Sequence record: PQ429080.1
DNA from: Escherichia phage vB_VIPECOTPH05B
Reading direction: 5' to 3' (one strand)
Length of the DNA: 44,015 bases
Shown piece by piece: positions 1 through 44,015 of the stretch. The notes below the pieces were generated by a model that was given only the letters and a program-made list of their open reading frames with translations, was not told where the DNA came from and did no database searches. Each line of letters starts with the position of its first letter. The stretch's first letter is position 1. Both the position numbers and the translations under genes were made by a program.

Positions 1-1857
1 TTATCTTCTTCCTCTATGTTGTTTACCTCTGCCCCGGCTCTGCAGCCGAGCAGCTACACCCCGAAGGCCCTTAGACACTTTGCTCTGTGCCCAATCCAAC
101 GGGTTCTCAATGAAGGCCCGAGCCATCTTCTCAGACTCACGCTCAGCCACTACTTTCTCGTCTTCCACCAGGTGCCCGTTCAGCGTAGCCACCATCATGG
201 CGATTGCGTCTGCTCGGTCATCCTTAGCCAGGCTACCGCGGTCGTACGTGATACCAGCCAACTGTGTGAACGCAGAGTACAGCCAACGTCTATCGCGGGA
301 GTACGCCATACAGGTACTGATATCGTCGTGAACCGCACGCTCATGCACCACCAGGCGGTGACGGCGAGTAACTGGGCTGATTGTGTCGATTATACGACGC
401 TCTTTCTGCGTGGAGTTGTTCAGGTCCCTTACACCGATACCGGCGAGACGTCGCTCCCGTAACCGGTTCAGGATAAGCATAGACACGGTGCCGTGCCCCA
501 TGTTGCTCTCCACCACCATATCCGGGATGTCTAACTCTACGCACAGGTCAATCAGTTTATCAATGTTCTCTTCGCTGATACCTCCTTGGAAGCCGCCTAC
601 GGAGAATAGGTGGATGTACGAGTTCGCAGCACCACCAGCAGCGTAGGACACTTCGTCTCCGCCACAACCAGCCGGGTCCACCACCAGCACCTTATGCTGG
701 TACGGCAGGTGCATATCCCCGTAGAATGCTGGGAAGTACATCTGCTGACCCATAATCCCCTCATGCTCGTGCTGGTACAGGTACCGGCGGTCTGCAATGT
801 AAGAGAACGTCTCGGGAGAGGAATCCTGACTGCCTGAGTAAACCAGCATATCCGAAAGCTTGATGCGTGTACGCATCTGGTCGGACAGGGTGGTATCGAG
901 CATGTACTGTAGCTGGAAGCCCTCCGGACCGAAGTCCAGCTCCTTCTCAATCAGTGCATCCTCATCATAGCGCCCAGTGTCTGTGCTCTCGCCTAGCGTC
1001 CCGTCGACGCCGAAGCCGGTGCGTTTATAGCCGCGCTCAATAAGCTCCAGTATATAAGGAGCAAGTGTACTTCCATATCGCTCTTCCATTTCAACAGATG
1101 GAATGCGCCCAGGCCACACGCGGACCTCAAAGCCACGTCCCGGCAGGGTTTTATAGATGCTGTCCTTGGTCTGCGGTGTGCCAAGGTACAGTATGTCCCC
1201 ATGCGTACAGATAGCTGCGAAGTCCTTCGAAATCATCAGCAGCTGCTCACGCTGGGTTTGCGTTAAGCCGTTCTTGGTGGTCTCGATATCGTCTGGAATC
1301 AGCAGGTCCGCACGCTTCCCCTGCAGGGATGCAGTGATACCTACACAGGCCACGCTGGCGGACTTATCCAGTGGTTTCAGGTCGCAGTTGACATCATAAC
1401 CTTCGAATGAAGTACGGTCCCCACGAGTAGGGTCAGCCTTCAAGTAGCACAGCAGTGGCCAGGTTTCCAACATACGAATGATTAGGTTCGCTACATCGGA
1501 CGCCTGCTTCTCTGCACCAGACACAATCAGAATACGGCAGGATTGGTCCTGGATAAGCCTCCAGACGGCATAGAGTGCAGCCAGTGTAGACTTAGCTTCA
1601 CCACGCTGTGCGGCCACCATGCGCTTCCTAGGGCCCTTCTGCATGTACTCTGCAATGTCGGCCTGCATGTCCGTCAGCGTAAAACCCAGGAATCGCATAC
1701 CGATGTACGCGAATTCCCGGAAGTCACTTAACGCAGCGGCCATCATCATCGCGATGTCCTCGCGCTCCTCTTTGGGAATACTGCGCGGATTCGCACTATA
1801 ACCAGTAAGTTTCTGGTTGAGCATGCGCAGTCTTCGCGCAGTCTTCACCGATACCAT
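1..1857 (-). CDS. Terminase large subunit (T7 gp19-like packaging ATPase/nuclease)
   Basis: 618 aa; ATPase-like N-terminal half and nuclease-like C-terminal half typical of T7-group large terminases; last gene of the structural block; stop codon (TAA) occupies window positions 3..1. Confidence 0.88.
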   Translation of the reverse strand: MVSVKTARRLRMLNQKLTGYSANPRSIPKEEREDIAMMMAAALSDFREFAYIGMRFLGFTLTDMQADIAEYMQKGPRKRMVAAQRGEAKSTLAALYAVWRLIQDQSCRILIVSGAEKQASDVANLIIRMLETWPLLCYLKADPTRGDRTSFEGYDVNCDLKPLDKSASVACVGITASLQGKRADLLIPDDIETTKNGLTQTQREQLLMISKDFAAICTHGDILYLGTPQTKDSIYKTLPGRGFEVRVWPGRIPSVEMEERYGSTLAPYILELIERGYKRTGFGVDGTLGESTDTGRYDEDALIEKELDFGPEGFQLQYMLDTTLSDQMRTRIKLSDMLVYSGSQDSSPETFSYIADRRYLYQHEHEGIMGQQMYFPAFYGDMHLPYQHKVLVVDPAGCGGDEVSYAAGGAANSYIHLFSVGGFQGGISEENIDKLIDLCVELDIPDMVVESNMGHGTVSMLILNRLRERRLAGIGVRDLNNSTQKERRIIDTISPVTRRHRLVVHERAVHDDISTCMAYSRDRRWLYSAFTQLAGITYDRGSLAKDDRADAIAMMVATLNGHLVEDEKVVAERESEKMARAFIENPLDWAQSKVSKGLRGVAARLQSRGRGKQHRGRR

Positions 1858-2159
1858 TAGACAATTCCTTCTAGTAAGTCCTCAGAGTCTGAACCACCAA
1901 CTTTATTTAGAATCTCTTGCTTACGCGCCTCTCTGCGCGCCGCCAGTTCGTCATCGAACTCGTCACGAAGGTCCTGCATCTCCTCGGAATCTGCATCCGC
2001 GGTAATGTCATTGTCCTTCAAGAACTTAGCGATAACTGATTTATCTGCGGCGGGGAGCGGCACCTCATCTTCCTTAGACTGCTTGATTTCTTCAATCAAG
2101 GCCTCGGTGAACATGCGGTGCAGCTCCGAGAGGCGACTGCGTTTAGCCGCCCCTGCCAT
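1857..2159 (-). CDS. Terminase small subunit (gp18-like)
   Basis: 100 aa, charged and helical, immediately upstream of the large terminase; its TAA stop overlaps the large-terminase ATG (TAATG). Assigned by position and size. Confidence 0.55.
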   Translation of the reverse strand: MAGAAKRSRLSELHRMFTEALIEEIKQSKEDEVPLPAADKSVIAKFLKDNDITADADSEEMQDLRDEFDDELAARREARKQEILNKVGGSDSEDLLEGIV

Positions 2160-2183
2160 AATTATACCTCGTGGTTGATGCTA

Positions 2184-4430
2184 CTACATTTTAACTTTTA
2201 CAAACCCGTTAGCGTCCCTATACAGCCGCCCAGCAACTGTCGGTACTGTGTCGGTCAGTGATGGGAACGATACGTCATCGTCTGCACTAAACAATCCACT
2301 GGCGCTTATGTTTGCAAATTGCACATCACCAGCATTTATGGAGAATTCAGGCATTGTCAAGTTCGCTCCTAACCTGTTAGTGGAGTACTGGGGTGACATC
2401 ACGAACAGGTGCTCGTTTGTGGGAATGCTGCCTGTGATGATAGTACCCACCCCGCTAACCCCCGATACATTCAAGTCACCCTGTATATTGATGATGTTGC
2501 GCCCCGCGCTGCCAACATAGTTTATAAACTTACACCCGTATACGTAGGCATTAAACGAGCAGTTTTTTACCTGAGAAGAGGCGTCAGTACCCAATTGCAG
2601 CGCGTGCACAGCCGTAGCTGGCGTACTGTTCATTGGCGCCCCAACAAATCCGTGGAACATGTTAGCATCGCTAGCCATAATAACAGCTGCGCCCGCTTGC
2701 CAGTTCGAATACACTCGGGTATTTATTACGGAGTTTCTAGCACCCTCAAAATACACCTGAGCGCTTGCTGCGCCCTCAAAATGGCAGTTGCTAATAAAGG
2801 TGTCGTAGCCTGCCACGTACAGCCCGTAGCGCATACGGTTACTGTATAGAGGTGTCACGTTGGCATCCCCGAAAGCCCACACATGCATCTGAGAGCCGCG
2901 AGTACCCCCACCACCACCATAACGGATACCATCATAGGTGTTGTGTGCTAGCAAACCTGCGCTACGCACCATCAAATGGTCTGATTGGTTGTCGGAAGAA
3001 CCACCAATAACTATACCATGTTGCCCAACCATATCTACTCGGATATCCGAGTACTTGCTTGGAGCCATGTATTTTATACTGGTATTACCCCTGCCCCCCA
3101 GGTTTACCCCCACGCCTCTGCAGTACCCAGCACGGATGCCTTTTAGATTTGTACCCGCCCCGTAAATCCGGAGGCACTCAGTATGCGACCGAGTATTTTC
3201 AGCGGTCCCATCCCAACCTCCCTCAATTATAAGGTCCTCTATGTAGATGGAATTCACCATAGCCGAGGGCACGTTTACCGTAAGATAATCTCCGGCTGGC
3301 GCGTTGCGCGACTTAACTATAGCATCATCCCAACTGCTTAAAGCCAAAACCCTAGAGATGCCTTCCACCCCAACAACTTTTACGCTGTCAGGTAAAATCC
3401 AGGGGCCGGACGTGGCGTAGGTTTTGGGCCCCAGATAGATTGGGAGGGACAGGCTCGCAGCGTATTCCGCAGCCGAGTTTAGGGCTGCAATGTCATCTGT
3501 GACCCCATCCCCGACGGCCCCAAACTGTTCCGGAGTTATAAACCACAGTACCAGCTTAGGTATAATTGAACCCGCTTTATAGTCTAGCGCGGACTGTACT
3601 GTGCCGCCCTGCGAAGTTCCAATGTAACCGGCACCAGACGAGCTGCTCAGCATGGCGAGTATATTGGCTAACGCAGACGTATCTGCCTCTGTGTCTATGC
3701 CAATAGTACAATCCACCAAGGTGCCCGCCGGTAGTACTGAGGTGAATTTAATAGACCCATCAATGACATCGTAAGAGTACCCAGCTGTCTGGGTTACACC
3801 ATTTACGCGAACCTTAGCCTTAGTGAAAGGCATGCCGGGAGTTACGGTATCCGTAGCAGTTGTCAGTACAGTCCACCAAGGGAAGCTGTTAGTGTTTGCA
3901 TTGAAGTGAGTCTGCTCCAGATTCACTATACGCGTATCCAGTTCAGCGTCAGCAGCCTCACGAGCAGCTGCCTCAGCATCTACTCGCACATCCAGCCGGG
4001 CATCCCCGGCATCGACGTATTGCTTGTTCGCAGCGTCCTGTGCATCTACTGGGTCGCCCAGGTTCGTGATGCGGTAACGATGCATATTAATGTCGCCATA
4101 GAAGCCTTCGATATAGCGGCCCTCAACCAGCTCTTGAGCCAGGTGCAGGAGCTGCATATTCTGGGTATCTACGTTTACTTCGATGAACGGAGCACCACTA
4201 GCAAATTCAATGTAGAGGTACTCTCGTTCAGTCTTACGAATGAGCAGTACCTCCGTCTCTGCAGATAGCGCCGAATTCAGTCGAATATTGGTGGAGCTGG
4301 TCCAAGTAAAGGCGGTGGTCTCGACGCCATCCAAATAAACGTGAATATAGGACTTATCCAGGTACTCAATATCGCACTGGATATCCTGAGTACCTGCAGG
4401 CTTTACCGACTCTTGCCAGCTGAATGCCAT
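2184..4430 (-). CDS. Tail fiber / tailspike protein (T7 gp17-like N-terminal adaptor plus beta-helix-like C-terminal domain)
   Basis: 748 aa; N-terminal about 150 aa resembles the conserved gp17 tail-attachment domain; the remainder is Gly/Asn/Ser/Thr-rich in a way typical of right-handed beta-helix receptor-binding or depolymerase domains. Confidence 0.75.
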   Translation of the reverse strand: MAFSWQESVKPAGTQDIQCDIEYLDKSYIHVYLDGVETTAFTWTSSTNIRLNSALSAETEVLLIRKTEREYLYIEFASGAPFIEVNVDTQNMQLLHLAQELVEGRYIEGFYGDINMHRYRITNLGDPVDAQDAANKQYVDAGDARLDVRVDAEAAAREAADAELDTRIVNLEQTHFNANTNSFPWWTVLTTATDTVTPGMPFTKAKVRVNGVTQTAGYSYDVIDGSIKFTSVLPAGTLVDCTIGIDTEADTSALANILAMLSSSSGAGYIGTSQGGTVQSALDYKAGSIIPKLVLWFITPEQFGAVGDGVTDDIAALNSAAEYAASLSLPIYLGPKTYATSGPWILPDSVKVVGVEGISRVLALSSWDDAIVKSRNAPAGDYLTVNVPSAMVNSIYIEDLIIEGGWDGTAENTRSHTECLRIYGAGTNLKGIRAGYCRGVGVNLGGRGNTSIKYMAPSKYSDIRVDMVGQHGIVIGGSSDNQSDHLMVRSAGLLAHNTYDGIRYGGGGGTRGSQMHVWAFGDANVTPLYSNRMRYGLYVAGYDTFISNCHFEGAASAQVYFEGARNSVINTRVYSNWQAGAAVIMASDANMFHGFVGAPMNSTPATAVHALQLGTDASSQVKNCSFNAYVYGCKFINYVGSAGRNIINIQGDLNVSGVSGVGTIITGSIPTNEHLFVMSPQYSTNRLGANLTMPEFSINAGDVQFANISASGLFSADDDVSFPSLTDTVPTVAGRLYRDANGFVKVKM

Positions 4431-4431
4431 A

Positions 4432-7400
4432 TTAATCGTCTCCGAAGTTATTGATGATAGCTCGCGTAGGTGCGAATTCCTGTATTAGCGGCACCTGCTT
4501 AGTGAAGGTCTTTATATCCATATTACCGGTAGCCAGGTCCTGTACGGCCCCGAGCAACCCTGTGACGTAACCCATAGATGCCAACGAGTGACGAGGGGAA
4601 TCTCCCAGGAAGATATCCTGCAGTAAGGATACCCCGCCGATGGCACTCATACCCATTACGGACTCGCTGATGAGTTTCTGAGTGTCTACGTCCTTACCAT
4701 CCATGCCATGCTTAGCCATAGTAGCCAGCAGCATTAACGGGAACTGGTACGCCATAATATGGGCTACGCCAATCCACCCAGCGTCGTTCAGCTCTCTGCG
4801 CAGAATCTTGTTAGTGGCTGCCAGTGCGAAGCTCTGGTACCCTACAATGACTTTGCCGATAGGATTGAACTGTGCAAAGTGCGAGGTCTCTCCAGTACGA
4901 ATCTGCTGTACCAGGTAGTCCATCATACGCGTCCCCACAACCTCAACTTGCATCTGCAGGTCCGGCTGGAACATAGCGCCCGGGTTAGCCTTGTTGGCAG
5001 CGATAGCGCGGTCAGCAACATCGCGAGTAAGCCCGAAACGCTCCAGACGCTTAAACGCCTCAGCATCGCCCTTGAACATCTGAGTAAGCTCGTCCGCCAC
5101 AATACCGGAGTTCAGGTTCACCTGTAGCCGGTGCACCATGCTCATACCGTTGACGTGACGGGCAGCCTGCCCAACGTTCTGGGTGACGTTGAACCAGGAG
5201 GCCTGACGGGTCAGGTCCAGGTTATCGTCAGCGTACGTATTCAGCCAGCGGAAGCGCATCTCCTTCTGAATATTACCCCGCAGCACGGTATCTAGACGAG
5301 CAGCCATATCCGGGGTCTTGATAGCCACGGCACCTTCCTTGAACCAAGGCTGGTCACGCATACTGCGCAGCACTCTAGCCATACCGAACTCCTTCATAGC
5401 CAAAGCAGTATCGGTCAGCTGATACAGGCCGGAGTTCTTAAGCATAGTGGCGTTTGCCATATTCCCAGCTGCACGCAGCAAGTCCGGAAGCTGCCCAGCG
5501 TCAGCAGGTGCCCCACCCAGGATAAAGTCGATGGTGTCATTGACGGTCTTCTCCCACTTGGCGGAATCCGCTAGTACGTGCTTAGACTCATCAATCATCT
5601 TGGCGAGCTGTCCCAGGTCCTGTACGCCTGCATAGGCCATACCTACACGTCCAGACATACGGTTAGTGTACCCGTGCATAACCTTGGCTACGTCAGTATC
5701 CATCAGGTCCTGCATGCGCATGCTCTTACCGTTCACCAGATACTCTTTATCCATGTTGAACCGAGTACGCTGGCGCAAGTTCCGCGCAGGGGATGTGCTG
5801 CCGGATTCGCGTACGTTACCAGCCAGGAAGCTCTGGATTGCAGACTCTTCTACACCGGCGCTGCGCATAGCCATAACGACCTCGTCGTTACCCATGCCGT
5901 TAATCAGCTGCTTCCACATAGGGCCAGCCTGCCCAGCACGGCCATTGTAGATGCCGTCAACCATCTCCTTAGCAACACGCTGCACTACCTCTGACTCCAT
6001 GCTCGGGTACACATCCCGCAGGGCGGACCGGAACAGGGCGCGGTAGTCATCCAGGGTATTGCCTTGTGCGATACCTTGGCGCATCTTGTCGTAGCTGTAC
6101 TGGCGCGGGAAGTAGTAGTCGGATTTAACCAACGCACCATCATCCACTAAACCGGCATTGAGCATATGCTCGTGCCACTTGCTAGCCCAGCCAGAGCGGC
6201 GATAGGCGTCAACCAGTGGAGCAATCTCTGCGTCCGGCACCGGCACAGCGCGGCCGTTTACGTCAGCGCTGTAGGCAGCATCCAGGTACTTGCTCAGGCG
6301 GTCTTCCAGCGCAGCCCGCTCAGCGCGGAAATTACTACGATGGAAGAAGCGTGAGAGTACACCTACACCCTTATCCTTCAACGCGCCCAGGATAGCATCT
6401 TCCACTACGCTGGCGCGAGCATCCATCTCCAAAGTTAGGTTACGCTTGTAGTCTACCACTGACGGGCGACGGCCGCCTACTGCGGACGCATCCGACACTA
6501 GCAGTTTAGCCAAGTCTTCGTTGCCTTGGGCGATATTATCGTACAGGGCAAACATAGTGGAGAGCTTCTTCTTAGCGCCGTCCAGCATAGCTTGGGCGCG
6601 CTTAGCCTCATTGAGGGTGGTGCTGCCCGCCAGGTCCTGGAAGGCTTCGCTACGGAAGCTCTGGGCTTGGTCTGCATAATCCTTAGCTGTCCACTTAACT
6701 GCGTCCTCATACGCATCCAGGACATCTTCCAAGGCAGAGCCTTTTGCCTTGATGCCCAGAGCGTTCATGATGTACTCACCCAGTTGGCGGAGCATACTCT
6801 TACCGGTGGGAGACTGCGTACGTGCCAGGTGCTCAACCCACTCAGGGCTGTCGCCTAAGCCTGCCAGCATCTCATGCACATTACTTGCGTAATACCGCAT
6901 ACGCGGTGTCAGGGTGGAGTCAGCCGCAATAACAGCGCGCACTTCCTCCAGGCGTTTAGCAATCTCGGGATTACTGTCAATGGCGCGCGCAGTAGCAGCA
7001 TGAATCAGTTCGTGCACGGCCACCTTGCTTGTATCTGCATCCATAGCGCGCAGCGCATCGCCGACTGTAGTCCAGGTGCTGCCGTTAGCTTGCTTAGGCG
7101 CACGCAGGGATATCTCTCCCCGCTTAGCTAAATCTTGTTGTGCGTAAGTGTAGCGGCTACGGTTTGCGGAGCCTGCTACCAGTTTAAAATCAATGTCATT
7201 TACAGCATCGCCCAGCGTGTACAGAATAGCCTTCTGTCCTGCTGTCAAGTGCTCAGACTTCTTCAAGAACTGAACTACGTGCTGTGCTTTCATGTTCACG
7301 GAGGCGGTATTGTTTCTCGATACTTGGATGCTTTCATCCAGTGTCTTAGTGAGAATTTCCTCTCCCTCTCCTACTCCGGTAACATTAGCATCCCTCGCTG

Positions 7401-8130: not shown

Positions 8131-8180
8131 AATATCTCCTAAAAGAATTTTGATAAGGGGAGGCCCCGAAGGGCCTCTGG

Positions 8181-10865: not shown

Positions 10866-10882
10866 TTAATATTCCTCTTAAG

Positions 10883-11470: not shown

Positions 11471-11471
11471 A

Positions 11472-31063: not shown

Positions 31064-31069
31064 GGGAAG

Positions 31070-33773: not shown

Positions 33774-33991
33774 TACGGCACCTCGTGCAGCACTATCCCT
33801 TGGTAGTTCTCGTAGATGCCGCAGCGGTCCCCCACGTCATCTACAAGCTCGTAGAATGTGAAGCAATTAACATACCCCATGGCGTATTCACCCACCTCGG
33901 AACGGGTAGCTGGGTAAATCTTGTTCAAGGTTAAGTCCGCTGCAGCAGGGTTGCGTCCCTTGTCAGTTACTACAATATTAACAGCCTTCAT
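33773..33991 (-). CDS. Hypothetical protein (72 aa)
   Basis: ATG overlaps upstream stop; its TAA overlaps the primase ATG (TAATG). Confidence 0.4.
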   Translation of the reverse strand: MKAVNIVVTDKGRNPAAADLTLNKIYPATRSEVGEYAMGYVNCFTFYELVDDVGDRCGIYENYQGIVLHEVP

Positions 33992-34470
33992 TGTGCTTTC
34001 TCCTTACGCTTGATTTCCATAGCCATGCGGCGCAGGTCGTGGGCCAACTGCAGTGCAGCGTCAGGTTCCAGGTTGATAGCCAGTATATTGCCGTAAGCTA
34101 GGGGATCAAACTTTTTACCGCTCTTCACTATGGCAATACTTAGGTGCCCCTCTAACTCCCAATGTGGCTGCACTAGCATGTGCTGGAAGTTGTCTTCACT
34201 GCTAGTGCTGTTATAGTACATAACGCTATCCGGAACCGGCGGCAGTTCGTCCTCTGGTTCTTGGTACAGCTCAAAGTTGCAGGCGGCCCAAGGATGTTCA
34301 TCATACACCTTAGACACACCATTTACCTGCAACCAGTAGCCCCCGGAAGGTACCGACGTAACTGTATAGTAGGCAGAGTCTCCGAGCATATGCAGAAAGT
34401 CTTCATCTTTACGGCCGCCTACTGTACGTACAACCTTATCACCAACTTTAAACTTAATAAACTTAGACAT
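33988..34470 (-). CDS. Hypothetical protein, member 1 of the MSKFK-G-D-VV paralog family
   Basis: 160 aa; begins MSKFIKFKVGDKVVRTVGG; ATG 2 nt after the stop of the peptidase-like gene. Confidence 0.5.
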   Translation of the reverse strand: MSKFIKFKVGDKVVRTVGGRKDEDFLHMLGDSAYYTVTSVPSGGYWLQVNGVSKVYDEHPWAACNFELYQEPEDELPPVPDSVMYYNSTSSEDNFQHMLVQPHWELEGHLSIAIVKSGKKFDPLAYGNILAINLEPDAALQLAHDLRRMAMEIKRKEKAQ

Positions 34471-34472
34471 AA

Positions 34473-35528: not shown

Positions 35529-35869
35529 TAAGCTGCCTCCTCTACTTCTTCTTCATCATCGTTTCCAAGGTACTTCTCTCCCAAGCAATCGGCTGCATGC
35601 TCAGTTAGAATTAACCCGTGCACTGGATGTTCTTCTGCGTGCTCAATAAGCACCTGCCGGTCCTGTGCATACACCAGTTCTTCTTGGTCGTGCACTACCC
35701 CTTCTACCGAACAGTGCTCAATGTCCGCGTCATATACATAGGCGTCGTGGTAATCAGACCAGGTGCAGTTCCAGCGACTATGCAGCCCTTCTCGGCCAAC
35801 TACATATACAAAGTCCCCATCTTCGACACAGCCGTCGCAGACCATTTCACCGTCGGCGGTTTCGTGCAT
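35528..35869 (-). CDS. Highly acidic small protein (about 113 aa), possible DNA-mimic-type host-takeover protein
   Basis: By my count about 31 D/E against 4 K/R in 113 residues, C-terminus NDDEEEVEEAA, plus CDGC/HC Cys-His pairs; start uncertain (alternatives at 35941 and 35974 overlap the upstream gene). Confidence 0.45.
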   Translation of the reverse strand: MHETADGEMVCDGCVEDGDFVYVVGREGLHSRWNCTWSDYHDAYVYDADIEHCSVEGVVHDQEELVYAQDRQVLIEHAEEHPVHGLILTEHAADCLGEKYLGNDDEEEVEEAA

Positions 35870-35873
35870 ATCA

Positions 35874-37202
35874 TCAGTGGAGTAACGCCCCCCCGCAGCA
35901 GCAGCACCGAGCAGACTCTGTACCTGCGTAGATGTATCCATCGGCTTCTTGCGCCTCGTACTCGTAGTCATCACGGATTACAAAGGCGTCATCCTCATAC
36001 TCATCTACGCCGCGCTGGCTGCTATCTAGGTATGGCATCAGCACTGCGCCGTTGTATGTTGGGTGCGGTATCCGCGCCAGCATGACCCCTTCGAGACACT
36101 CAGTGTTTCTGGTGTACCCATGCCCCCGCAGGATTGCATCCGCAGCGTTGCCATAAGCACGGACGTACTCTTTGGTTTCAGGTTTTACGATTGCTCGTGC
36201 CTGCACTTCGAAGTCGTCCCCGAACAGCTCCCCGGTATACTGGATGAATAGGCGCAACCCGTTATCCGGCAACCCGTGGCTAGTAGTAGCGTACGTCCGC
36301 ACAGGGCTATACTCAAATGAGTACCCGCTCATGCAGCTACTTGGGCCGTTCTCGTAGGCGTCGTACCACTCCTGCTCGGTCTTGCACAGGTACACTGTAG
36401 GCTCTACGTTCATAGCCTTGAGGTCTTCGATAGCATCGCGGAAGTCCACCCCGTTGCCATAGTAGTTAGCGAGCCACTTACCTACGCGCATCTCCACGCA
36501 GCGGTACTCAGTAACTGCGGCGAAGTCCTTGTGCATCCGCGGCTGCCCCAGCATCACGATGGGCTCGCCGTTGCGGAAGCCAAAGCCCAAAGGCACGGCG
36601 AATCTAGACACTACGAAGCCGTGCAACTTCATGAGCAGGGCAGCAGTATAACCATCGCGGATGCATCTGCTGTAATCGTAGCCAGTGTATAGGCGGCGCT
36701 GATTATCTTCTGGTGCAAGCATAATGCGCTCGAATAATTGCACGGCCTGCTTGTGCACCTTGTAGCCGGTTAACTCTTCGACGCGAGCAACTACGCGCTC
36801 AACCACTACATCATCACCATCATAGAAGTCTCGGCGCTGTTCCCAGAACTTGCTATCAATGGTGCGCCGCGCCGGGGCAAAGAGTTCGTAGAAAGTTCCG
36901 CTGTTATACAGGTCCACCTTTTGCAACGGGCCGAGAGTCCTCATCAACCCGCGGTATTTTGGGTGCAGTGCCCCGCCTATAGTCACCTCTAAGCCGGGAG
37001 TGAGCATGCTCACAGTGCGGAGACCCGTAAGCGCCTGCAGTGGACCTTCGGTGTGGGGGTGGTCAGCGCCCTGCATTTGCAAGTCCTGGAACGGGGTCCA
37101 GTAATCACCGCTGGAATACATTGATTCTTTCATCGGCAGTGCGTTTGCACCTTCCGGTAACACTACTTTCCATTCGATAGGTGCTGTGTTAGTCTCTTGC
37201 AT
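35874..37202 (-). CDS. Large early protein of unknown function (about 442 aa), C-terminus ends in CCCC
   Basis: Track ORF reaches 37496 but overlaps the upstream gene; the ATG at 37202 has AGGAG 9 nt upstream (alternative ATG at 37259). No kinase, ligase or Walker motif recognised. Confidence 0.5.
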   Translation of the reverse strand: MQETNTAPIEWKVVLPEGANALPMKESMYSSGDYWTPFQDLQMQGADHPHTEGPLQALTGLRTVSMLTPGLEVTIGGALHPKYRGLMRTLGPLQKVDLYNSGTFYELFAPARRTIDSKFWEQRRDFYDGDDVVVERVVARVEELTGYKVHKQAVQLFERIMLAPEDNQRRLYTGYDYSRCIRDGYTAALLMKLHGFVVSRFAVPLGFGFRNGEPIVMLGQPRMHKDFAAVTEYRCVEMRVGKWLANYYGNGVDFRDAIEDLKAMNVEPTVYLCKTEQEWYDAYENGPSSCMSGYSFEYSPVRTYATTSHGLPDNGLRLFIQYTGELFGDDFEVQARAIVKPETKEYVRAYGNAADAILRGHGYTRNTECLEGVMLARIPHPTYNGAVLMPYLDSSQRGVDEYEDDAFVIRDDYEYEAQEADGYIYAGTESARCCCCGGALLH

Positions 37203-37248
37203 TTTAATTTGCTCCTGGGTTAGTTGTATTTCATCGTACGTTAAGAGT

Positions 37249-37593
37249 TCAGCGTGCATACCACGCAGCGAGCTGTCTTTGCTTATAATACGAGCGCACA
37301 GCCGCCTTAAATCTAGTATAGGCTCCACGATATCCGTACCGTAGTAGTGCTGCAACCACATCGAACTGAATGTGCTCTTGCAACTGCCGCGCGGCAGCTT
37401 CTGTATACTCGCGGTACGTGGTGAGCACCACCGTAGAGTCCTGCCTACGAACTCGGAGGAGTCTACGCTCGACCGGTATGATTTGCTTGAGTTCATTAGG
37501 AACCTCTTTGAATGTTTCCCAAGTGCAGCCGCACTTGCCCTGTGTTTCCAGCAGACGCCAGCACAGCAGCGCTGTTTCGTCTACTGTGAGCAT
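37249..37593 (-). CDS. Hypothetical protein (114 aa), basic
   Basis: ATG start; overlaps upstream gene by 13 nt. Confidence 0.4.
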   Translation of the reverse strand: MLTVDETALLCWRLLETQGKCGCTWETFKEVPNELKQIIPVERRLLRVRRQDSTVVLTTYREYTEAAARQLQEHIQFDVVAALLRYGYRGAYTRFKAAVRSYYKQRQLAAWYAR

Positions 37594-37799
37594 GAGCAGT
37601 CCCTGAATATTACGTTCCGGGCCACTAGGGTGCTGCGGTCACTAGATATTAACCCACCAACCTTGTGCCCGGATGGTATCCACCGCTGCAAACGCTCTGC
37701 ATAGAACTCCGCGCGCTTATGCAGTGGGCCATCAAGTACAACCCTGTATAGTAACCCATTCGGGCGCTTGTATACGTCATACAGGTTCTGTTTGCTCAT
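37581..37799 (-). CDS. Hypothetical protein (72 aa)
   Basis: ATG overlaps the stop of the upstream small ORF (ATGA). Confidence 0.45.
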   Translation of the reverse strand: MSKQNLYDVYKRPNGLLYRVVLDGPLHKRAEFYAERLQRWIPSGHKVGGLISSDRSTLVARNVIFRDCSCSQ

Positions 37800-37975
37800 A
37801 CAATACCCCTTACATTAAACCGTAAGCAGTAGCCGCGCAGGGTCATACCCAGGCGCTGCGCTTGCTTCTCATAGTGCTGGCGCAGCGCTGCCTTCGCGTT
37901 GTACTCGCGCGCCAGTCCGTCTATTGTTGGTTGCTGCTTATGCATCAGCAGCGTCTCAGGATTCTTTCCGTGCAT
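37796..37975 (-). CDS. Small hypothetical protein (59 aa), basic
   Basis: Hand-translated: MHGKNPETLLMHKQQPTIDGLAREYNAKAALRQHYEKQAQRLGMTLRGYCLRFNVRGIV; GAGGT 7 nt upstream of ATG. Confidence 0.3.
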   Translation of the reverse strand: MHGKNPETLLMHKQQPTIDGLAREYNAKAALRQHYEKQAQRLGMTLRGYCLRFNVRGIV

Positions 37976-37983
37976 ACCCTACC

Positions 37984-38247
37984 TCAAATATCGTTGTTGC
38001 TCTTACCGTCCACCGTGAGCGTTACAGCGGCGTCCGGGTACTGCTCTTGCACCGCCGCAAGGATACGTGCGCCCAGCTCTTTGCAACCACCGTCCGGGTT
38101 CTCAAAGAGGTCATAGTCAGGGCGTGACTGCGGCTCCTGCGCCGCCGGTTGCTGTAACTGCACTGTGCAATATGGCACCGGGTTGTTTACGTCGTTGCCC
38201 AGCACCAACATAGCGCTAGTCACAATAATGTTGAATACGTTAACCAT
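37984..38247 (-). CDS. Small protein with N-terminal hydrophobic segment (about 87 aa)
   Basis: Start at internal ATG (M11 of the track ORF) with GGAG 9 nt upstream; MVNVFNIIVTSAMLVLG resembles a signal peptide or TM anchor. Confidence 0.4.
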   Translation of the reverse strand: MVNVFNIIVTSAMLVLGNDVNNPVPYCTVQLQQPAAQEPQSRPDYDLFENPDGGCKELGARILAAVQEQYPDAAVTLTVDGKSNNDI

Positions 38248-38461
38248 AGAGTTGTCTCCAGTCGTTGATAATACCAAGATTCACGGCGTCCAGCACAGTG
38301 CGGGCAGCCATTTCGGTGTAGGTATCCACAAATTCTAAAGGGGATTCCTGATTAGTGTCTTTGTCAGAGAATATAACCACAGTGTAGTTGTATTCCTCGT
38401 ATACCCGATTGCACCACACAGGCCAGAGTTCATGGCCCGGATAGACCAGTATTGCTTTCAT
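38240..38461 (-). CDS. Hypothetical protein (about 73 aa)
   Basis: Start at second ATG (M5) with GAGG 6 nt upstream; immediately downstream of hairpin copy A. Confidence 0.45.
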   Translation of the reverse strand: MKAILVYPGHELWPVWCNRVYEEYNYTVVIFSDKDTNQESPLEFVDTYTEMAARTVLDAVNLGIINDWRQLYG

Positions 38462-38490
38462 ATGAAACCTCATACTCCAGTTGCATTCAC

Positions 38491-38512
38491 ATAGCGCCCC
38501 GTAGGACGCTAT
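38491..38512 (-). promoter_or_regulatory. Conserved intergenic hairpin, copy A
   Basis: Minus-strand RNA AUAGCGUCC-UACG-GGGGCGCUAU: 9-10 bp stem with a UACG tetraloop; about 27 of 30 nt identical to copy B. Confidence 0.45.
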
Positions 38513-38522
38513 AGGCTTGCTA

Positions 38523-38696
38523 CTAAAGCACGCTTATACCGATACGTGAATAGAAGTCGCTGAGCTTAATCAAGCCCGCCGTGATGGTGTTCTGGAGGCT
38601 AGGCCGCGCCAGCGACTTCTGTGCAGCACTGGGTTTACGCTTGCTACGCATTTCAGCAGCATCAGCACGACGTTGGGCACGGTTACGGTATGGCAT
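38523..38696 (-). CDS. Small basic protein (57 aa)
   Basis: Hand-translated: MPYRNRAQRRADAAEMRSKRKPSAAQKSLARPSLQNTITAGLIKLSDFYSRIGISVL; AAGGAGAG 7 nt upstream of ATG; Arg/Lys-rich. Confidence 0.35.
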   Translation of the reverse strand: MPYRNRAQRRADAAEMRSKRKPSAAQKSLARPSLQNTITAGLIKLSDFYSRIGISVL

Positions 38697-38895
38697 AGTT
38701 TACTCTCCTTTGTTGTGGCATGATTGCCCTCTAGGGTACTCGTTAGAATACCCTATGAGAAATCACGCTAGAGATACTCACCCAATCCCTCGTACACCCA
38801 TTTTTGAGCGATTGCCCGCATAGGGATATCGAAGGCGTCCGCATCGTTCGCTGCGGGGCACAGGGCCCACCACTTGATAACCGGGACTTTATAAA

Positions 38896-39471
38896 TCATG
38901 CTGCCACCTTCAAAGTTGCGTCCAGTACAGCGCGTACATCCACGCCCTGATTGATAAGCATGCTCACCAAATCAGAGTCGCTTACGCCAGTCTCTTTAGC
39001 CTTCTTGATAGCGTTTTTAACGCGCCCCAGCGCCTGCAGGCGCACTGCATCGGCATCCAGTGCGTCATTCTTCACCTGCTCCGCTTCGGCGGCGTACAGG
39101 GCCATACAGGAGCTATAGAAGCTGGCTACAATCACTTCGCGGCCCTGCTTGTCAGCTTGTTTATAGTCCAGACGCATAGTGTCCAGTTCAATGCCCAGCT
39201 TCTCTGCCGAGGCGTAGCACTTCTTCGCGTTGAATTCGTACTTACCGGACTCTTTATTGAACTTGATAGGCAGCAGAGTACGCAGCACCATATCGAAGTC
39301 AGCAGCATCACTGCGCTGCATATCCGTAGCCCATGAGATGTTGCTGCTAATCAGGCCGTGAAAGAGCGCGCTGATAGTGATGTTACGTTTTGCTTCCACT
39401 ACGTCACCCAGCGCTTTGCGAATGCTGCCCGCAGCAGTGAGCTTGAATACTTTACCAGTTGAATGAGTCAT
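38896..39471 (-). CDS. Hypothetical early protein (191 aa)
   Basis: ATG with GAGGTG upstream; downstream of hairpin copy B; no recognisable motif. Confidence 0.5.
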   Translation of the reverse strand: MTHSTGKVFKLTAAGSIRKALGDVVEAKRNITISALFHGLISSNISWATDMQRSDAADFDMVLRTLLPIKFNKESGKYEFNAKKCYASAEKLGIELDTMRLDYKQADKQGREVIVASFYSSCMALYAAEAEQVKNDALDADAVRLQALGRVKNAIKKAKETGVSDSDLVSMLINQGVDVRAVLDATLKVAA

Positions 39472-39518
39472 AATGCACCTCGTTGATTGTTGGTTGTTTA
39501 CTTATCGAATTACTTCAC

Positions 39519-39540
39519 ATAGCACCCCATAGGATGCTAT
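39519..39540 (-). promoter_or_regulatory. Conserved intergenic hairpin, copy B
   Basis: Same stem-loop as copy A; one stem base pair is G:C in A and A:T in B (both partners changed), so pairing is preserved. Confidence 0.45.
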
Positions 39541-39549
39541 AGGCTGTAA

Positions 39550-39765
39550 TTAACGTCCGAACTGTCCGGCAGTGTACCAACCTTGCGGAGCCTTGCTGCT
39601 GCCCTTTGTTTTGGTCTTACCACGCACATTCGTGCTGAACGTGGCGGATTGCTTAGTCCGCATATACCCTGCGCGGTTCAGTGCATCCCGGCGCTTTCTC
39701 AATTCCGAACCGGATAACTTCTCCAGCCCAGCGAATTGCTGCGCTAACTTCTCACGATATTTCAT
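39550..39765 (-). CDS. Hypothetical small basic protein (about 71 aa), first gene after the ORF-free leader
   Basis: Start at first ATG (M6 of the track ORF) with AAGGAG 6 nt upstream; K/R-rich. Confidence 0.45.
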   Translation of the reverse strand: MKYREKLAQQFAGLEKLSGSELRKRRDALNRAGYMRTKQSATFSTNVRGKTKTKGSSKAPQGWYTAGQFGR

Positions 39766-40033
39766 TGCGTACTCCTTCAAAGTTAATGATTAACGCCCTA
39801 GCAGTATCTAGCAGGACGCTAACTCTTAACCTTGTTACCCACTGCACTACCGTGGAACCTGTGGTCAGGTCTCGGCGCTATTCTTTTAAGGGGCAGCGCC
39901 TCAGCGCCCCAGCCGTTTGTCGTCTCTGCTCTTGACGTTACATCTTTAATGCTACTGATTGTCTAGGATTGGTCGTCATCGTACCAGTCAAGGTACTGGG
40001 CCTCCCCGCAAACCAGCTTACTGCTTGCTATCT

Positions 40034-40062
40034 AAGTTACTCAGTGAATCAGAACTTGTCAA
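40034..40062 (-). promoter_or_regulatory. Candidate sigma70-type early promoter (TTGACA - 17 nt - TAACTT)
   Basis: Perfect -35 hexamer, 17-nt spacer, weak -10; in the ORF-free leader about 250 nt upstream of the first early gene. Confidence 0.3.
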
Positions 40063-40263
40063 GCGTTTATTTCTTACTGCATCGGGAGCCTGTTAACCTC
40101 CCCTGTGAGCTGTAGCCCCTCAGCGGGCGACTCTCTGGCTCCTGCCTTGCTCCACCACGGTGGGACACTTGCCGGGCTAGTCACGCCCTTGTTGGGTTGT
40201 AGTACCCTTCGGAACTGCTACCGTGGGAGCCGGTAGCGACCCTTACTACTTACTTCGGGATTC

Positions 40264-40292
40264 AATCTAGCTTATGTTCTTCGCGGTGTCAA
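40264..40292 (-). promoter_or_regulatory. Candidate sigma70-type early promoter (TTGACA - 17 nt - TAGATT) with A-rich upstream tract
   Basis: Minus strand reads GATAAAAAGAG-TTGACA-CCGCGAAGAACATAAGC-TAGATT; perfect -35, 17-nt spacer, 4 of 6 at -10. Confidence 0.4.
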
Positions 40293-40461
40293 CTCTTTTT
40301 ATCGAGTATCTAACCCTTCACACTATCTAGCCTTAATCCGGCGGAGCCTCCCGGCTAGGCCCCGGTTAGCCTAGCTAGTCGCTAGTGCCTCCCGGTGATT
40401 GAACTATAGCCCTATAGAACCAAAAGAAGCAAGCACTATTTTCAACTTTTTATCTCTGAGA

Positions 40462-40494
40462 GCAAAAAGGGTAAGCAGACCCCTAAAGGTCTGC
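40462..40494 (-). terminator. Possible terminator-like hairpin at the 3' end of the HNH gene
   Basis: GCAGACC-6 nt loop-GGTCTGC stem overlapping the HNH stop codon, followed on the minus transcript by UUACCCUUUUUG. Confidence 0.3.
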
Positions 40495-40869
40495 GTGCAG
40501 TAAGCTATTGTAATCCCCATAGGTTACGTCGAACTCTCGCCAGTTAGTGTCGTAGTCCGGACTAGCCAATAACTCCTCTTTTGTGAAACATCTCCCCTCC
40601 TTAATCTGCGCTAGGTGAATGGCGCGGTGAGTGTCGGCGCTAACCAATATCAGGTTATCAAAGGCGCAGTTAAGACGGTTACTGTCACAGTGATGTACAT
40701 GGTAGCCAGAGCCGTAGCTAGTGATACCCAGTGCATCCATAACCACGGCTCTATGCAGCGCCATAGTCCTACGGTCCTTTTTACCGTTCTTACGTATACA
40801 CGCTGGACCAGCACCGTTAATCACTGGATAGCCCTCTTTATCAACCACAATCTTAAATGTTCTAGCCAC
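40483..40869 (-). CDS. HNH endonuclease (third HNH gene in the window)
   Basis: 128 aa; HVHHCDSNRLNCAFDNLILVSADTHRAIH motif; apparent GTG start with TAAGGAG 8 nt upstream; flanked by the two longest ORF-free stretches. Confidence 0.7.
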   Translation of the reverse strand: MARTFKIVVDKEGYPVINGAGPACIRKNGKKDRRTMALHRAVVMDALGITSYGSGYHVHHCDSNRLNCAFDNLILVSADTHRAIHLAQIKEGRCFTKEELLASPDYDTNWREFDVTYGDYNSLLHADL

Positions 40870-40879
40870 AACAATAACT

Positions 40880-41694
40880 CCTTACATAGTGATGAGTAGC
40901 GTAACCATAGCGACGATATCCCGGAGGGATAGGAGCGGAGGTTACAAGATTCTAGGGATAGCAGCCTACTGCGTAGGCACAGGGCTATCCTAGTGAATAC
41001 CTAGTAGGGACTAGTAAGGACTAGTATTAAGTAGTGTGTATATAGTGCCCTAAAACCCTCCTACTCCGGTTACTTCATTTCATAATAGCTTTCGAATGAA
41101 AGTAAGAGCAAAGGGATAGCATTGGGATAGCGCTGGGATAGCGGCAGAGTGTGGATGTGCGCCCTAGTGGGGAGCGCGCAGCGTAGCATATAATTAGCAC
41201 AATGTAAAGCCCCAAGGATAGCCAGTGGATAGCCTAGTGCATACTAGGGATAGCACTAGGGATAGCACCACAGCGCACTAGCTGGCCCACTAGGCAGGCA
41301 CAAAATAAGCAAGGCAGAGCGCACCCCTATGGCCCACAGGGAGCGCACAGGGAGCGCCTAGTGAACGCACAGGGATAGCACCAGTGCCCCATAGAGCGCA
41401 CAGGAAGCCCTACAAGGCACGCACAGGCAAAGCCATAGGGTAGCACTAGCAATAGCCCTAGCGCAGCGCAGAGAGCCACTGAGGCCCACTGGTGCGCCCT
41501 AGCAGGCCCACCCAGTGCCCCCCCCCTAAATTGGCGCTAGGCACCCCCTATGGGGGCAATTGGGCGCGCTGAGGGTGAGGGACCCTGCCGCGTGAGTATA
41601 ATAAATTTCGGGTTCAGGTATAGACGTGCACCCGGATAGCCCCAGATAGCCCCACATAGACGCCCAGTGCTTACTCTAGTACTTACCCTAGCAC
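40880..41694. repeat. ORF-free repeat-rich region: at least 10 copies of GGATAGC plus CACAGGG/CACTAGG motifs, a C9 homopolymer and short tandem repeats; probable genome-terminus region
   Basis: No ORF of 60 aa or more on either strand across about 800 bp; GGATAGC at about 40956, 41114, 41125, 41136, 41216, 41227, 41248, 41259, 41373, 41634 (first three tandem copies spaced 11 bp); C-run at 41518..41526. Confidence 0.6.
41059..41080 (-). promoter_or_regulatory. Conserved element AAATGAAGTAACCGGAGTAGGA, copy 1 (candidate phage-RNAP promoter)
   Basis: 21 of 22 nt identical to the copy after the RNAP gene; lies in the repeat region upstream of the HNH gene. Confidence 0.35.
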
Positions 41695-41880
41695 TTATTC
41701 TGCGATAGCCCCGGAGGCCCGCAGGGACGCTAACAGGGCCGCCAGAGTAACCGCCAGTGCCTCTGCCGTAGTATCGGTAGCATCAGCTACAGCAACCCCT
41801 TGCAGTACCCCGCCGATAGAGTCCGTAGTAGCTTCCGGTAATACCGGTGCCTTTGCTTGTACAAGCTCAACCAGTGCCAT
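41695..41880 (-). CDS. Hypothetical small protein (61 aa) at the distal end of the lysis cassette
   Basis: ATG 1 nt after the endolysin stop; Ala/Val/Thr-rich with a hydrophobic C-terminal stretch; no lipobox. Confidence 0.4.
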   Translation of the reverse strand: MALVELVQAKAPVLPEATTDSIGGVLQGVAVADATDTTAEALAVTLAALLASLRASGAIAE

Positions 41881-41881
41881 A

Positions 41882-42490
41882 TTAACCTCCTACCCCTTTA
41901 AGCGCAGCGATTGCTGCATTCACATTCTTGTACTGGTTCCCAATAGCTTTGCTCTGCCACTGCCTGCGCTCCCATAGGCCCCAGCACACTTTATTGCGCT
42001 GCCCGTTAACGTATTGGGAACAGTCGAAGGTCCAGCGGTTGCCGCCCTTGTACACCCAGCCAGTGCCGGGGGACTTCTGCTGGTACTTGCTAATATAGCG
42101 CCAGTCCAGCACAGCCTTCGCGGCCGATGCATAATCAAGGCTTTTGAGGTGGCGCTTCACGGAGCTTCCGTTGAAACCCGCCACGCCTACGTTGTACGTG
42201 AAGTCCAGGGCACCTAGCAGGGCCACGTCAGAGAGCTGCATAGGAAGCCCGTCAAGAGCTTTTGCATGCTCCCCTGCTGATTGTATCAGTTGCTTCTGAC
42301 AATCGCTCAGCGTGGCTCTCTGGCCCATTTTGACGCCCTTTGTCTCACCGTAGCAGATAGTCGGGACACCGGCGCTATCCTTATAGGCAGTAAGGCTCAA
42401 CCCCTCGTTATGCTGCACCACCCCGGTAATAGCGCCGCCAAGCATAGTGGCCCCCGTAAGGGCCGCCACAACCTTAGTCCTTAAACTCAT
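41882..42490 (-). CDS. SAR endolysin, T4-lysozyme-type muramidase (GH24-like)
   Basis: 202 aa; weakly hydrophobic Gly/Ala-rich N-terminus (KVVAALTGATMLGGAITGVV) followed by the catalytic E-x8-D-x5-T pattern (NEGLSLTAYKDSAGVPT); start overlaps the holin 3' end. Confidence 0.85.
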   Translation of the reverse strand: MSLRTKVVAALTGATMLGGAITGVVQHNEGLSLTAYKDSAGVPTICYGETKGVKMGQRATLSDCQKQLIQSAGEHAKALDGLPMQLSDVALLGALDFTYNVGVAGFNGSSVKRHLKSLDYASAAKAVLDWRYISKYQQKSPGTGWVYKGGNRWTFDCSQYVNGQRNKVCWGLWERRQWQSKAIGNQYKNVNAAIAALKGVGG

Positions 42491-42725
42491 ATTTAATAGT
42501 CCCCTTACGTGCCTGCTCCTCTAGGAGCTTGAATGTACGCCGCTTGTAATACGCATTCCACGCCAGGGTTAGCACTGCGCACACCGTCGCAGTGATGAAG
42601 CTGATAGTGCTCCAGTTCCAGCTCATTACTTCTGCCACCCAACCTCCAGATACAGCCGCTGTAGTGGCTGTAGTCCCTGCCTTGGTGATTACGTCAGTAG
42701 ACACTACATCCGAAACCTTAATCAT
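42474..42725 (-). CDS. Holin (pinholin-like)
   Basis: About 83 aa from first ATG; weakly hydrophobic first segment, strong TM helix (WSTISFITATVCAVLTLAW), charged C-terminal tail; immediately upstream of and overlapping the SAR endolysin. Confidence 0.55.
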   Translation of the reverse strand: MIKVSDVVSTDVITKAGTTATTAAVSGGWVAEVMSWNWSTISFITATVCAVLTLAWNAYYKRRTFKLLEEQARKGTIKYEFKD

Positions 42726-42733
42726 GTACACCT

Positions 42734-43099
42734 CTATACAATTATCAGTGACTGTGAGAACACAGGCATCGGATAGTTAGTATCTTCCGCCGGGTAGAAG
42801 CCGTACCAGGGGCACCATATATCTCGGTTAGGGTACAGTATCACCCAGTGACTGTGACTTGTACCGCGTTCGCATCTAGCCCTCGTTATACGAGTAGCAT
42901 TCGATTTCGACCACCACACCCTGCCCAGACTCACCCCGCAGGTCCTCGCCACTTTAATTAAATCGCTAAAGGTGCTGGCATCTGTAGGACGTTTAAGGGT
43001 GCTTAGCCATGCGGCCTCAATATCCTCATAAGGGATATCTAAAAGGGATGACAGCGCGGCCGCGCCGCAATCGTCGTCCTTACGTTGTAGCGTCTGCAT
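42734..43099 (-). CDS. Small cysteine-peptidase-like protein (papain/C39-like Cys...His...Asp arrangement) in the lysis cassette
   Basis: About 121 aa from ATG with AAGGAA 8 nt upstream; N-terminal DDDCGAAALSSLL and downstream HSHWVILYPNRD resemble the Cys and His/Asp motifs of C39-type peptidases. Motif-level call only. Confidence 0.45.
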   Translation of the reverse strand: MQTLQRKDDDCGAAALSSLLDIPYEDIEAAWLSTLKRPTDASTFSDLIKVARTCGVSLGRVWWSKSNATRITRARCERGTSHSHWVILYPNRDIWCPWYGFYPAEDTNYPMPVFSQSLIIV

Positions 43100-43499
43100 C
43101 TTCTCGTTCCTTACTTTTACCAAACACTCTGCGCATCACCAGGATGACCACTAGGAAGATAAGTGGAATACTGGCCCCGGCTAATCCCGCCAGGATTAGA
43201 CTGTAGCTGTCGTTGTTTACTACCTGTAAACGGTCAGCCTGGATAGTACCAGTACTAATAGTCTGGACCTGCTTCTTACTAGAAGTGTCCAAAGTCCCAA
43301 CTGTAGAATCGGTTACGTCAGTCTTATTGGTGGTGCTGGCATCCACCTTGTTATTCAAGCCAACGGTTTGTTTGGTGTTCTCGGCACCAACCTGAGCAGA
43401 TACATCCGGCTTAGAACCAACTAAGCCGGTGAGTGCAGAGGTCGCCGAGCAACCAGTCAGAGTAACCGCGAGCAGTAACCCAGCGACCAGTTTACGCAT
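43080..43499 (-). CDS. Candidate unimolecular spanin: outer-membrane lipoprotein with C-terminal transmembrane helix
   Basis: 139 aa; lipoprotein signal with lipobox LTGC and Ser at +2; Ser/Thr-rich middle of about 80 aa; C-terminal TM helix (LILAGLAGASIPLIFLVVILVM) followed by RRVFGKSKERE; no Rz/Rz1 pair seen elsewhere. Confidence 0.5.
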   Translation of the reverse strand: MRKLVAGLLLAVTLTGCSATSALTGLVGSKPDVSAQVGAENTKQTVGLNNKVDASTTNKTDVTDSTVGTLDTSSKKQVQTISTGTIQADRLQVVNNDSYSLILAGLAGASIPLIFLVVILVMRRVFGKSKEREDADATT

Positions 43500-43681
43500 T
43501 AGCTTGCCGCCTTCACTGCGGCTACCGCGGCTTCAAGCGCAGCAATCTTGGTATCGAAGTCTGCGCCAGTCTGGGCAACGTTCTGCGGCTGCGTAAGGAT
43601 AGCATACAGGTCCTTACCGAGAATGTTCAGCTGGCGCAGCAGCTCCTGCTGTTGCGCTGAGGTTGCTTTTGCAATTGCCAT
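43499..43681 (-). CDS. Hypothetical small protein (60 aa), helical
   Basis: ATG with AAGGGG 8 nt upstream; TAA stop overlaps the ATG of the lipoprotein gene (TAATG). Confidence 0.4.
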   Translation of the reverse strand: MAIAKATSAQQQELLRQLNILGKDLYAILTQPQNVAQTGADFDTKIAALEAAVAAVKAAS

Positions 43682-43692
43682 AGTATTACCCC

Positions 43693-44015
43693 TTACTCAA
43701 TAGAGATTGCTGTGATTACACCGTCTTCTACAGTGATCGTCGCTGCTACGGTAGCAGTAGCTCCCGCCTCCCGGGCGGTGGTAAACGTAATGGGTACGGT
43801 TACTTCTGCGCCATTACCTACAACCACTACAGCGCCACCATCAGAGGCGCCTGCAGCAGCCAGTGCAGCTACTGCTACAGCCCCTGCTGCATCTACGTCC
43901 GGACCAAGAGTATCTAGCGGGCCGGTATCATGTGCCAAGGTTGTTGCTTTATCAAGTGCTACCGCTGCATTACGTACTGCCTGGCGCTGTGCCAGTGTTG
44001 CTTCTGCAAATGCCA
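43693..44015 (-). CDS. Hypothetical Ala-rich protein, 5' end runs off the window edge; likely starts at an ATG formed by position 1 plus 44015..44014
   Basis: Reading frame is open to position 44015; under circular wrap the codon (1, 44015, 44014) on the minus strand is ATG, in frame, overlapping the large-terminase stop as TAATG, giving a 107-aa protein. Confidence 0.5.
   Translation of the reverse strand, partial: AFAEATLAQRQAVRNAAVALDKATTLAHDTGPLDTLGPDVDAAGAVAVAALAAAGASDGGAVVVVGNGAEVTVPITFTTAREAGATATVAATITVEDGVITAISIE

Follow-up and report, generated by a model that had tools for sequence, protein, structure and literature searches.

Contiguous ends and a terL-boundary origin in a unit-length Drulisvirus genome record

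The 44,015-nucleotide stretch of DNA that was analysed here at its full length, and that we call the window, is one unit length of a KP34-like Drulisvirus genome (Slopekvirinae, Autographiviridae), and its two ends are contiguous. The ATG that spans those ends is the genuine start of a genuine gene, which follows directly upon the large terminase gene, terL. In sequence the window is all but identical to the vB_VIPKPN... isolates from the Philippines, which we refer to as its siblings, and we consider it very probable that it holds the unit-length genome of a Klebsiella pneumoniae Drulisvirus, as a circle that came from a collapsed direct terminal repeat (DTR) and was opened at a terL boundary. 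The permutation is a property of the record and not of the virus, and it gives no support to circular or circularly permuted virion DNA.

Three genes, all on the minus strand, are needed to follow the argument at the junction:

1..1857, minus strand: terL, large terminase subunit, 618 aa (Pfam PF22530, Terminase-T7 RNaseH-like, 1.3e-30; PHROG 38/17672; sibling annotation)
1857..2159, minus strand: terS, small terminase subunit, 100 aa (Pfam PF11123, 1.7e-19; PHROG 891, 7.5e-32)
43693..44015 (323 nt) plus position 1, which supplies the A of its ATG, minus strand: junction gene, 107 aa (translation across the joined ends)

The window starts with TTATCTTC... and ends with ...GCAAATGCCA. Plus-strand positions 1-3 are TTA and the last letters are ...GCCA; over positions 3, 2, 1, 44015 and 44014 the minus strand reads TAATG. 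The TAA stop codon of terL occupies positions 3..1, and the ORF that is open at 44015 shares its frame with the ATG made by positions 1, 44015 and 44014, just as a first, sequence-only reading of the letters had claimed. Position 1 is thus both the last base of the terL stop and the A of the next start, a one-base overlap. That reading had asked for the end to be joined to the start and for ORFs to be called anew, and translation across the joined ends yielded an intact 107-aa ORF with its stop codon at 43695..43693 and the product MAFAEATL...AISIE. A Shine-Dalgarno-like motif, GAGGAAG, lies 7-13 nt upstream of the ATG, and the reading frame upstream of the ATG is closed. The chance that an ATG would arise at a random cut is about 1 in 64. 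Stop-start coupling had also been said to recur in this genome, and it does: the annotation of an identical sibling holds six one-base TAATG or TGATG overlaps, the junction included, plus that of terS and terL (again TAATG, the terS stop sharing one base with the terL ATG), together with ten ATGA overlaps. The overlap at the junction would couple terL and the gene behind it translationally.

What decides that the ends are contiguous is that siblings and raw-read assemblies carry the exact junction sequence uninterrupted. A 3-kb query made of 1,500 bases from each side of the joined ends was searched against annotated phage genomes and was recovered in a single piece at 100% identity in five GenBank records of 44,014-44,016 bp, those of the Klebsiella phages vB_VIPKPNMC07C, TPH03, TPH06, TPH09 and TPH10 (PQ505478, PQ505480, PQ505481, PQ505483 and PQ505484). 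All five siblings have the gene order of the window and the same TAATG overlap between terL and the 107-aa gene, which is annotated in PQ505478 and PQ505480 as a 'hypothetical protein' CDS at 1857..2180. Independent support comes from Logan assemblies of five SRA runs, which are collinear across the junction at 99.98-100% identity; their contigs carry an identical terL and pass straight into the 107-aa gene, which is called there as a gene of that length. Together with the conservation of the 107-aa protein described below, these records and assemblies bear out the contiguity that had been proposed from the letters.

Beyond the siblings, the joined ends matched about 250 Drulisvirus genomes with the 3-kb query and 248 with a 400-bp junction probe. 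When 40 rows were sampled across the ranking of the 248 relatives, the match with the 400-bp probe passed from terL beyond the junction in 39, and terL plus a hypothetical protein was nearly always annotated under it. Identity in the other relatives was ~90-93% in the terL-junction region, and the 3' 200 nt of terL were 95-98% identical in most of them. Full-length homologues of the 107-aa protein, at 95-100% identity, occur in 19 phage records with terL as the neighbour in every one, and the match begins at residue 1 in 18 of the 19. The Pfam search with this protein gave no match, and the PHROG search gave a marginal one (phrog_9732, E = 0.008).

A further reading, for which only the supply of the sequence as a linear window speaks, would make the window ends true physical or contig ends and the ATG across them a coincidence. 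This is refuted: five GenBank genomes and five raw-read assemblies run through the junction without a break. In addition, the encoded protein is kept from its first residue in nearly all of its homologues, and it is implausible that a physical end would coincide exactly with a stop codon and fall within the conserved start of a gene. Moreover, the ends of relatives map 2.4 kb away.

The gene after terL is hypervariable. The phage vB_KpnP_fHeKpn01 (fHe-Kpn01, MN380459) has the same genome plan, in which a gene overlapping terL by one base comes next; this is gp52, which encodes a virion-associated protein of 124 aa, and the allele differs from the 107-aa gene of the window. We considered gp52, given its identical position, as a homologue of the junction protein, and found the similarity unconvincing (E = 7e-4 over 41 aa), so that the virion-associated status cannot be transferred with confidence. 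The phage vB_KpnP_Dlv622 (Dlv622, MT939252), whose aligned segments are 71-97% identical to the window in nucleotide sequence, also carries the 107-aa junction gene, with a product that is 95% identical in amino acids. The annotations of the siblings, of Dlv622 and of fHe-Kpn01 all contain the CDS after terL, with one base shared between the two genes.

Apart from the genes at the junction, the content of the window is as follows, in the order in which the minus strand is read from the predicted left end. Coordinates within 41695..43681 were converted from the CDS table of the sibling PQ505480, and Logan gene calls also support the genes there.

22000..41315, minus strand: DNA metabolism and early region, which also holds small early ORFs (Pfam, sibling annotation, collinearity with the left end of Dlv622)
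40483..40869, minus strand: HNH gene in a largely non-coding leader adjoining the DTR (Pfam HNH_3, 1e-7)
32988..33773, minus strand: primase (sibling annotation)
31389..32669, minus strand: DnaB-like helicase (Pfam DnaB_C/AAA_25)
28034..30391, minus strand: DNA polymerase A (Pfam DNA_pol_A, 2e-26)
2184..21858, minus strand: structural module and RNA polymerase (ORFs, Pfam, sibling annotation)
19390..21858, minus strand: single-subunit RNA polymerase (RNAP), 822 aa (Pfam RNA_pol, 5.1e-88)
17061..18656, minus strand: portal (Pfam Head-tail_con, 5e-52)
16204..17046, minus strand: scaffold (ORFs and sibling annotation)
15715..16191, minus strand: HNH gene (ORFs and sibling annotation)
14683..15702, minus strand: capsid (ORFs and sibling annotation)
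13842..14402, minus strand: tail tube (Pfam Tube, 2e-24)
11472..13832, minus strand: nozzle (Pfam Phage_nozzle, 4e-170)
4432..11470, minus strand: internal virion proteins (ORFs and sibling annotation)
2184..4430, minus strand: tail fibre (Pfam Phage_T7_tail, 2e-15, the T7 tail fibre N-terminal domain)
43499..43681, minus strand: 60-aa ORF (sibling annotation)
43080..43499, minus strand: Rz-like spanin (sibling annotation)
42734..43099, minus strand: 121-aa ORF (sibling annotation)
42474..42725, minus strand: holin (sibling annotation)
41882..42469, minus strand: endolysin (sibling annotation; Pfam Phage_lysozyme, 2e-21)
41695..41880, minus strand: small 61-aa ORF, the last late ORF (sibling annotation)

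Read from the predicted left end, the minus strand gives the early and small ORFs, primase, helicase, DNA polymerase A and RNAP, then portal, scaffold, capsid, tail tube, nozzle, internal virion proteins, tail fibre, terS and terL, and, past the junction, the 107-aa gene, the 60-aa gene, spanin, holin, endolysin and the small ORF. All annotated genes (60 CDS in the sibling annotation) lie on one strand. Assignment to Drulisvirus follows from the 100% identity to five records classified in that genus, from collinearity, from the single-subunit RNAP and from the complete set of modules. The earlier mention of a complete T7-like gene set was well founded, as RNAP, DNA polymerase, helicase, portal, tail tube, nozzle, tail fibre, terS, terL and lysozyme were all recovered. 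With T7 itself the window shares the T7-type terL and terS, the single-subunit RNAP and genes on one strand; the gene order, however, is phiKMV/KP34-like, with RNAP beside the structural genes and the lysis cassette after terL, whereas terL is nearly the last gene of T7.

The replication, structural, packaging and lysis modules are all present by Pfam and sibling annotation. Calling the genome complete is therefore right as far as the modules go, but it holds only with the terminal repeat collapsed to a single copy at 41316..41580. In the same way, the description of the window as a circular permutation of a complete genome stands, as it is one unit length with joined ends, with the qualification that the permutation belongs to the record and not to the virus.

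A slice of some longer contig (a concatemer, a prophage or a chimeric assembly) might also have come out one genome long by chance. We think this very unlikely, as the length of 44,015 bp compares with 44,014 and 44,016 bp in complete sibling genomes that are collinear over their full length, the cut falls exactly on a gene boundary, and the sibling annotation contains no integrase. To our knowledge, the genus Drulisvirus is strictly lytic. If the slice came from a concatemer, moreover, it would not differ biologically from the unit-length genome that we favour.

The position of the cut also fits that preferred reading. The sibling records open at the A of the terL ATG, with terL as CDS 1..1857, and the window opens on the opposite strand, where its position 1 is the final base of the terL stop. 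Save for one homopolymer base, the window equals the reverse complement of bases 1..1857 of PQ505478 and PQ505480 followed by the reverse complement of base 1858 to the end, which is a rotation of 1,857 bases in opposite orientation. Since both origins lie exactly on boundaries of one gene, terL, we take the cut to be annotation-driven and not a matter of chance. Many Drulisvirus records have terL at 1..1857, and in a paper on other phages, apparently from the same laboratory (judging from the VIP naming and the country), assemblies were reoriented on terL.

We infer that the origin of the window was set to the low-coordinate end of a terL match on the minus strand. A short-read assembly would close to a circle through collapse of the two DTR copies, and the circle would then have been opened at a terL boundary: for the siblings presumably at the terL ATG on the plus strand, and for the window, as the reverse complement, probably at the far side of terL, on the final base of its stop codon. 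Because terL overlaps both of its neighbours by one base, either cut harms one of them. A cut at the terL stop would take the A from the downstream gene's ATG and so produce the apparent start codon across the ends; in the window, the start codon that is split is indeed that of the gene downstream of terL. The mirror-image cut at the terL ATG of the siblings splits the terS stop codon and accounts for the absence of terS from their 60 annotated CDS.

If the ends of the record are not those of the virion, the physical ends should lie elsewhere, and homology points to the following stretch:

41316..41580, minus strand: predicted DTR, ~264-265 bp, present as a single copy in the window (homology to annotated DTRs of four relatives)

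The predicted physical left end is 41580 on the minus strand, beginning CCTCACCCT..., and the repeat would end ...GGGGTGCGCTC(T) at 41317/41316. This end lies ~2.4 kb from the window end, and the predicted repeat sits in non-coding DNA that has the last late ORF (41695..41880) on one side and the early region on the other. In all four of fHe-Kpn01 (222 bp), KpV41 (KT964103; 214 bp), SAA231 (267 bp) and Dlv622 (278 bp), the annotated DTR starts at the homologue of 41580/41579, with the common start (C)CTCACCCT... on the minus strand, and in three of the four records the repeat ends ...GGGCCATAGGGGTGCGCTC(T), which corresponds to 41317/41316. The first 40 nt of KpV41 are identical to window positions 41580..41541, and the left end of fHe-Kpn01, CCTCACCCT..., is homologous to the window at 41580. 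The termini of fHe-Kpn01 are blunt physical ends with a 222-bp DTR, established by PhageTerm, restriction digests, ligation and Sanger sequencing (PMC7291057), and the 278-bp terminal repeat of Dlv622 was derived from PhageTerm (PMC8381472). The fHe-Kpn01 record is in physical form with both 222-bp repeats annotated, in contrast to the single copy in the window; the Dlv622 and KpV41 records are likewise linear with both repeat copies, unlike the window, in which the repeat boundaries of these two phages are conserved. Termini calls are not uniform within the genus, since the annotated DTRs of NKA196 (167 bp) and VKV295 (181 bp) have other boundaries. We gave these two less weight as guides to the termini, as they disagree with four concordant records, one of them experimentally verified.

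The virion DNA of the phage is accordingly predicted, by homology to these relatives, to be linear, with an expected length of ~44.28 kb running from 41580 down through 1 and 44015 to 41316. It would have fixed blunt ends and a DTR of ~264 bp, and it would probably be packaged from concatemers by a T7-type terminase. T7-type packaging is suggested by a terL of that type, which has the nuclease domain of the T7 terminase (PF22530), and by a stretch homologous to mapped DTRs with conserved boundaries, the latter being non-coding and placed, as in T7-type systems, after the last late gene and before the first early one.

Headful packaging would offer another explanation. Its products would be real circular permutations with terminal redundancy, every rotation of the record would represent them equally well, and, at variance with the mapped relatives, the continuity across the junction would have biological meaning. 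The assemblies do close into a circle, and the window has no visible terminal repeat: a search for a terminal overlap or direct repeat of at least 40 nt in the window found none, the longest repeat family being 39 nt at 72% identity. GenBank relatives have also been deposited in many rotations, but these cluster on terL boundaries, which points to convention. We nevertheless judge headful packaging highly unlikely. The terL is of the T7 type and not of the headful type. Dlv622, to which the aligned segments of the window are 71-97% identical, is annotated with fixed ends, and for one member of the genus blunt, fixed ends with a 222-bp DTR have been verified experimentally. The four annotated DTRs also share boundaries that are kept in the window.

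For the unit-length genome with a collapsed repeat, the practical consequences are modest. The split start codon is a bookkeeping property of a rotated phage assembly that has already been deposited, and it carries no new biology. The window can be used as a complete Drulisvirus genome, and ORFs are best called on the circularised sequence, as the 107-aa gene after terL is otherwise lost or truncated. No circular or permuted chromosome should be deduced from the record. It is one repeat copy short and does not follow the physical orientation; the virion DNA is expected to be linear and ~264 bp longer than the record.

Some differences from the relatives were seen outside the junction. An early gene is frameshifted in the window where Dlv622 has an intact 557-aa gene, and there is an HNH insertion in the leader region, the gene at 40483-40869, which Dlv622 lacks. 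Dlv622 has an extra tailspike gene, and fHe-Kpn01 has a second tailspike gene before its right repeat. The only difference between the window and its GenBank siblings lies inside the predicted DTR:

41518..41526: homopolymer, C9 on the plus strand and G9 on the coding strand, inside the predicted DTR

The window has C9 in this tract, as against C8 or C10 in the siblings, and two Logan contigs terminate in it. The poly-G tract inside the repeat is thus variable, and assemblies break there. A near-complete contig from raw reads has a single gap, at window positions 33511-33666, which spans the homologue of the site-specific nick reported in fHe-Kpn01, and this suggests that the nick in the primase gene is conserved among Drulisviruses.

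Judged by sequence comparison, the slot directly 3' of the large-terminase gene (terL) is hypervariable in Drulisvirus. In the window it is filled by the junction gene, whose start codon is divided between the window ends.

43693-44015 plus position 1, minus strand: junction gene of 107 aa, directly 3' of terL

In most sampled rows, drawn from 248 relatives, the nucleotide alignment ends 6 nt beyond the terL stop, so that the conserved part comprises ATGGCA only. The 107-aa allele of this slot is rich in Ala, Gly and Val and is present in 19 records. Its positional counterpart in fHe-Kpn01 is gp52, to which its similarity is marginal; gp52 was found in virions by mass spectrometry. The GenBank siblings PQ505478 and PQ505480 start at the terL ATG, the A of which doubles as the final base of the stop codon of the small-terminase gene, terS (TAATG). 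As a consequence of this origin, terS spans the record ends and is absent from the 60-CDS annotation, a loss that is the mirror image of the window's own split-start artefact.

The predicted terminal repeat and the adjoining leader contain a homopolymer, many short motifs and an HNH gene.

41150-41700, minus strand: repeat and leader region, with many short reiterated motifs
41518-41526: run of nine C (G on the coding strand) within the predicted terminal repeat
40483-40869, minus strand: HNH endonuclease gene (Pfam HNH_3, 1.2e-7)
15715-16191 and 30393-30872: two further HNH genes

The reiterated motifs are CTAGTG, CCTGTGCGCTC and GGCTATCC. Among the elements of this region there is, in addition, a core that does not vary: CTCACCCT.A.CG...CCCCCATAGGGGGTGCCT.GCG. 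This core includes the palindrome CCCCCATAGGGGG, sited at the predicted left end, and is put forward as a candidate signal for recognition or cutting by the terminase. The poly-C tract is the sole difference between the window and its GenBank siblings, with 8, 9 or 10 bases, and two Logan contigs from separate runs terminate precisely there (41518/41519); together, these observations suggest heterogeneous length or sequencing trouble at the tract. The leader HNH gene lies in an early leader that is elsewhere non-coding. It corresponds to a stretch of approximately 475 bp that Dlv622 lacks, and VKV295 has an HNH gene in a similar position. The HNH genes of the window look like mobile homing-endonuclease insertions.

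Two further observations concern the primase gene and an early gene.

32988-33773: primase gene, of which one raw-read contig lacks 33511-33666
35528-37201, minus strand: split early gene, with a G7 run at 35888-35894

The near-complete raw-read contig SRR30781907_19 (43,858 bp) is missing only the approximately 156 bp that correspond to 33511-33666. In fHe-Kpn01, a nick at nt 7873 has support from S1 nuclease (PMC7291057). Its site maps to window position 33564, within this gap and adjoining the inverted repeat ATGCAATTTGCAT, and a site-specific nick may be conserved here between the two phages. The early gene is an intact 557-aa ORF in Dlv622 (dlv622_00011), whereas its window counterpart is broken into 442 and 113 aa by one additional G in the G7 homopolymer; this could be a genuine frameshift, a slippage site or a consensus error common to the records. 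Both pieces are annotated in the siblings, each with PHROG 6980.
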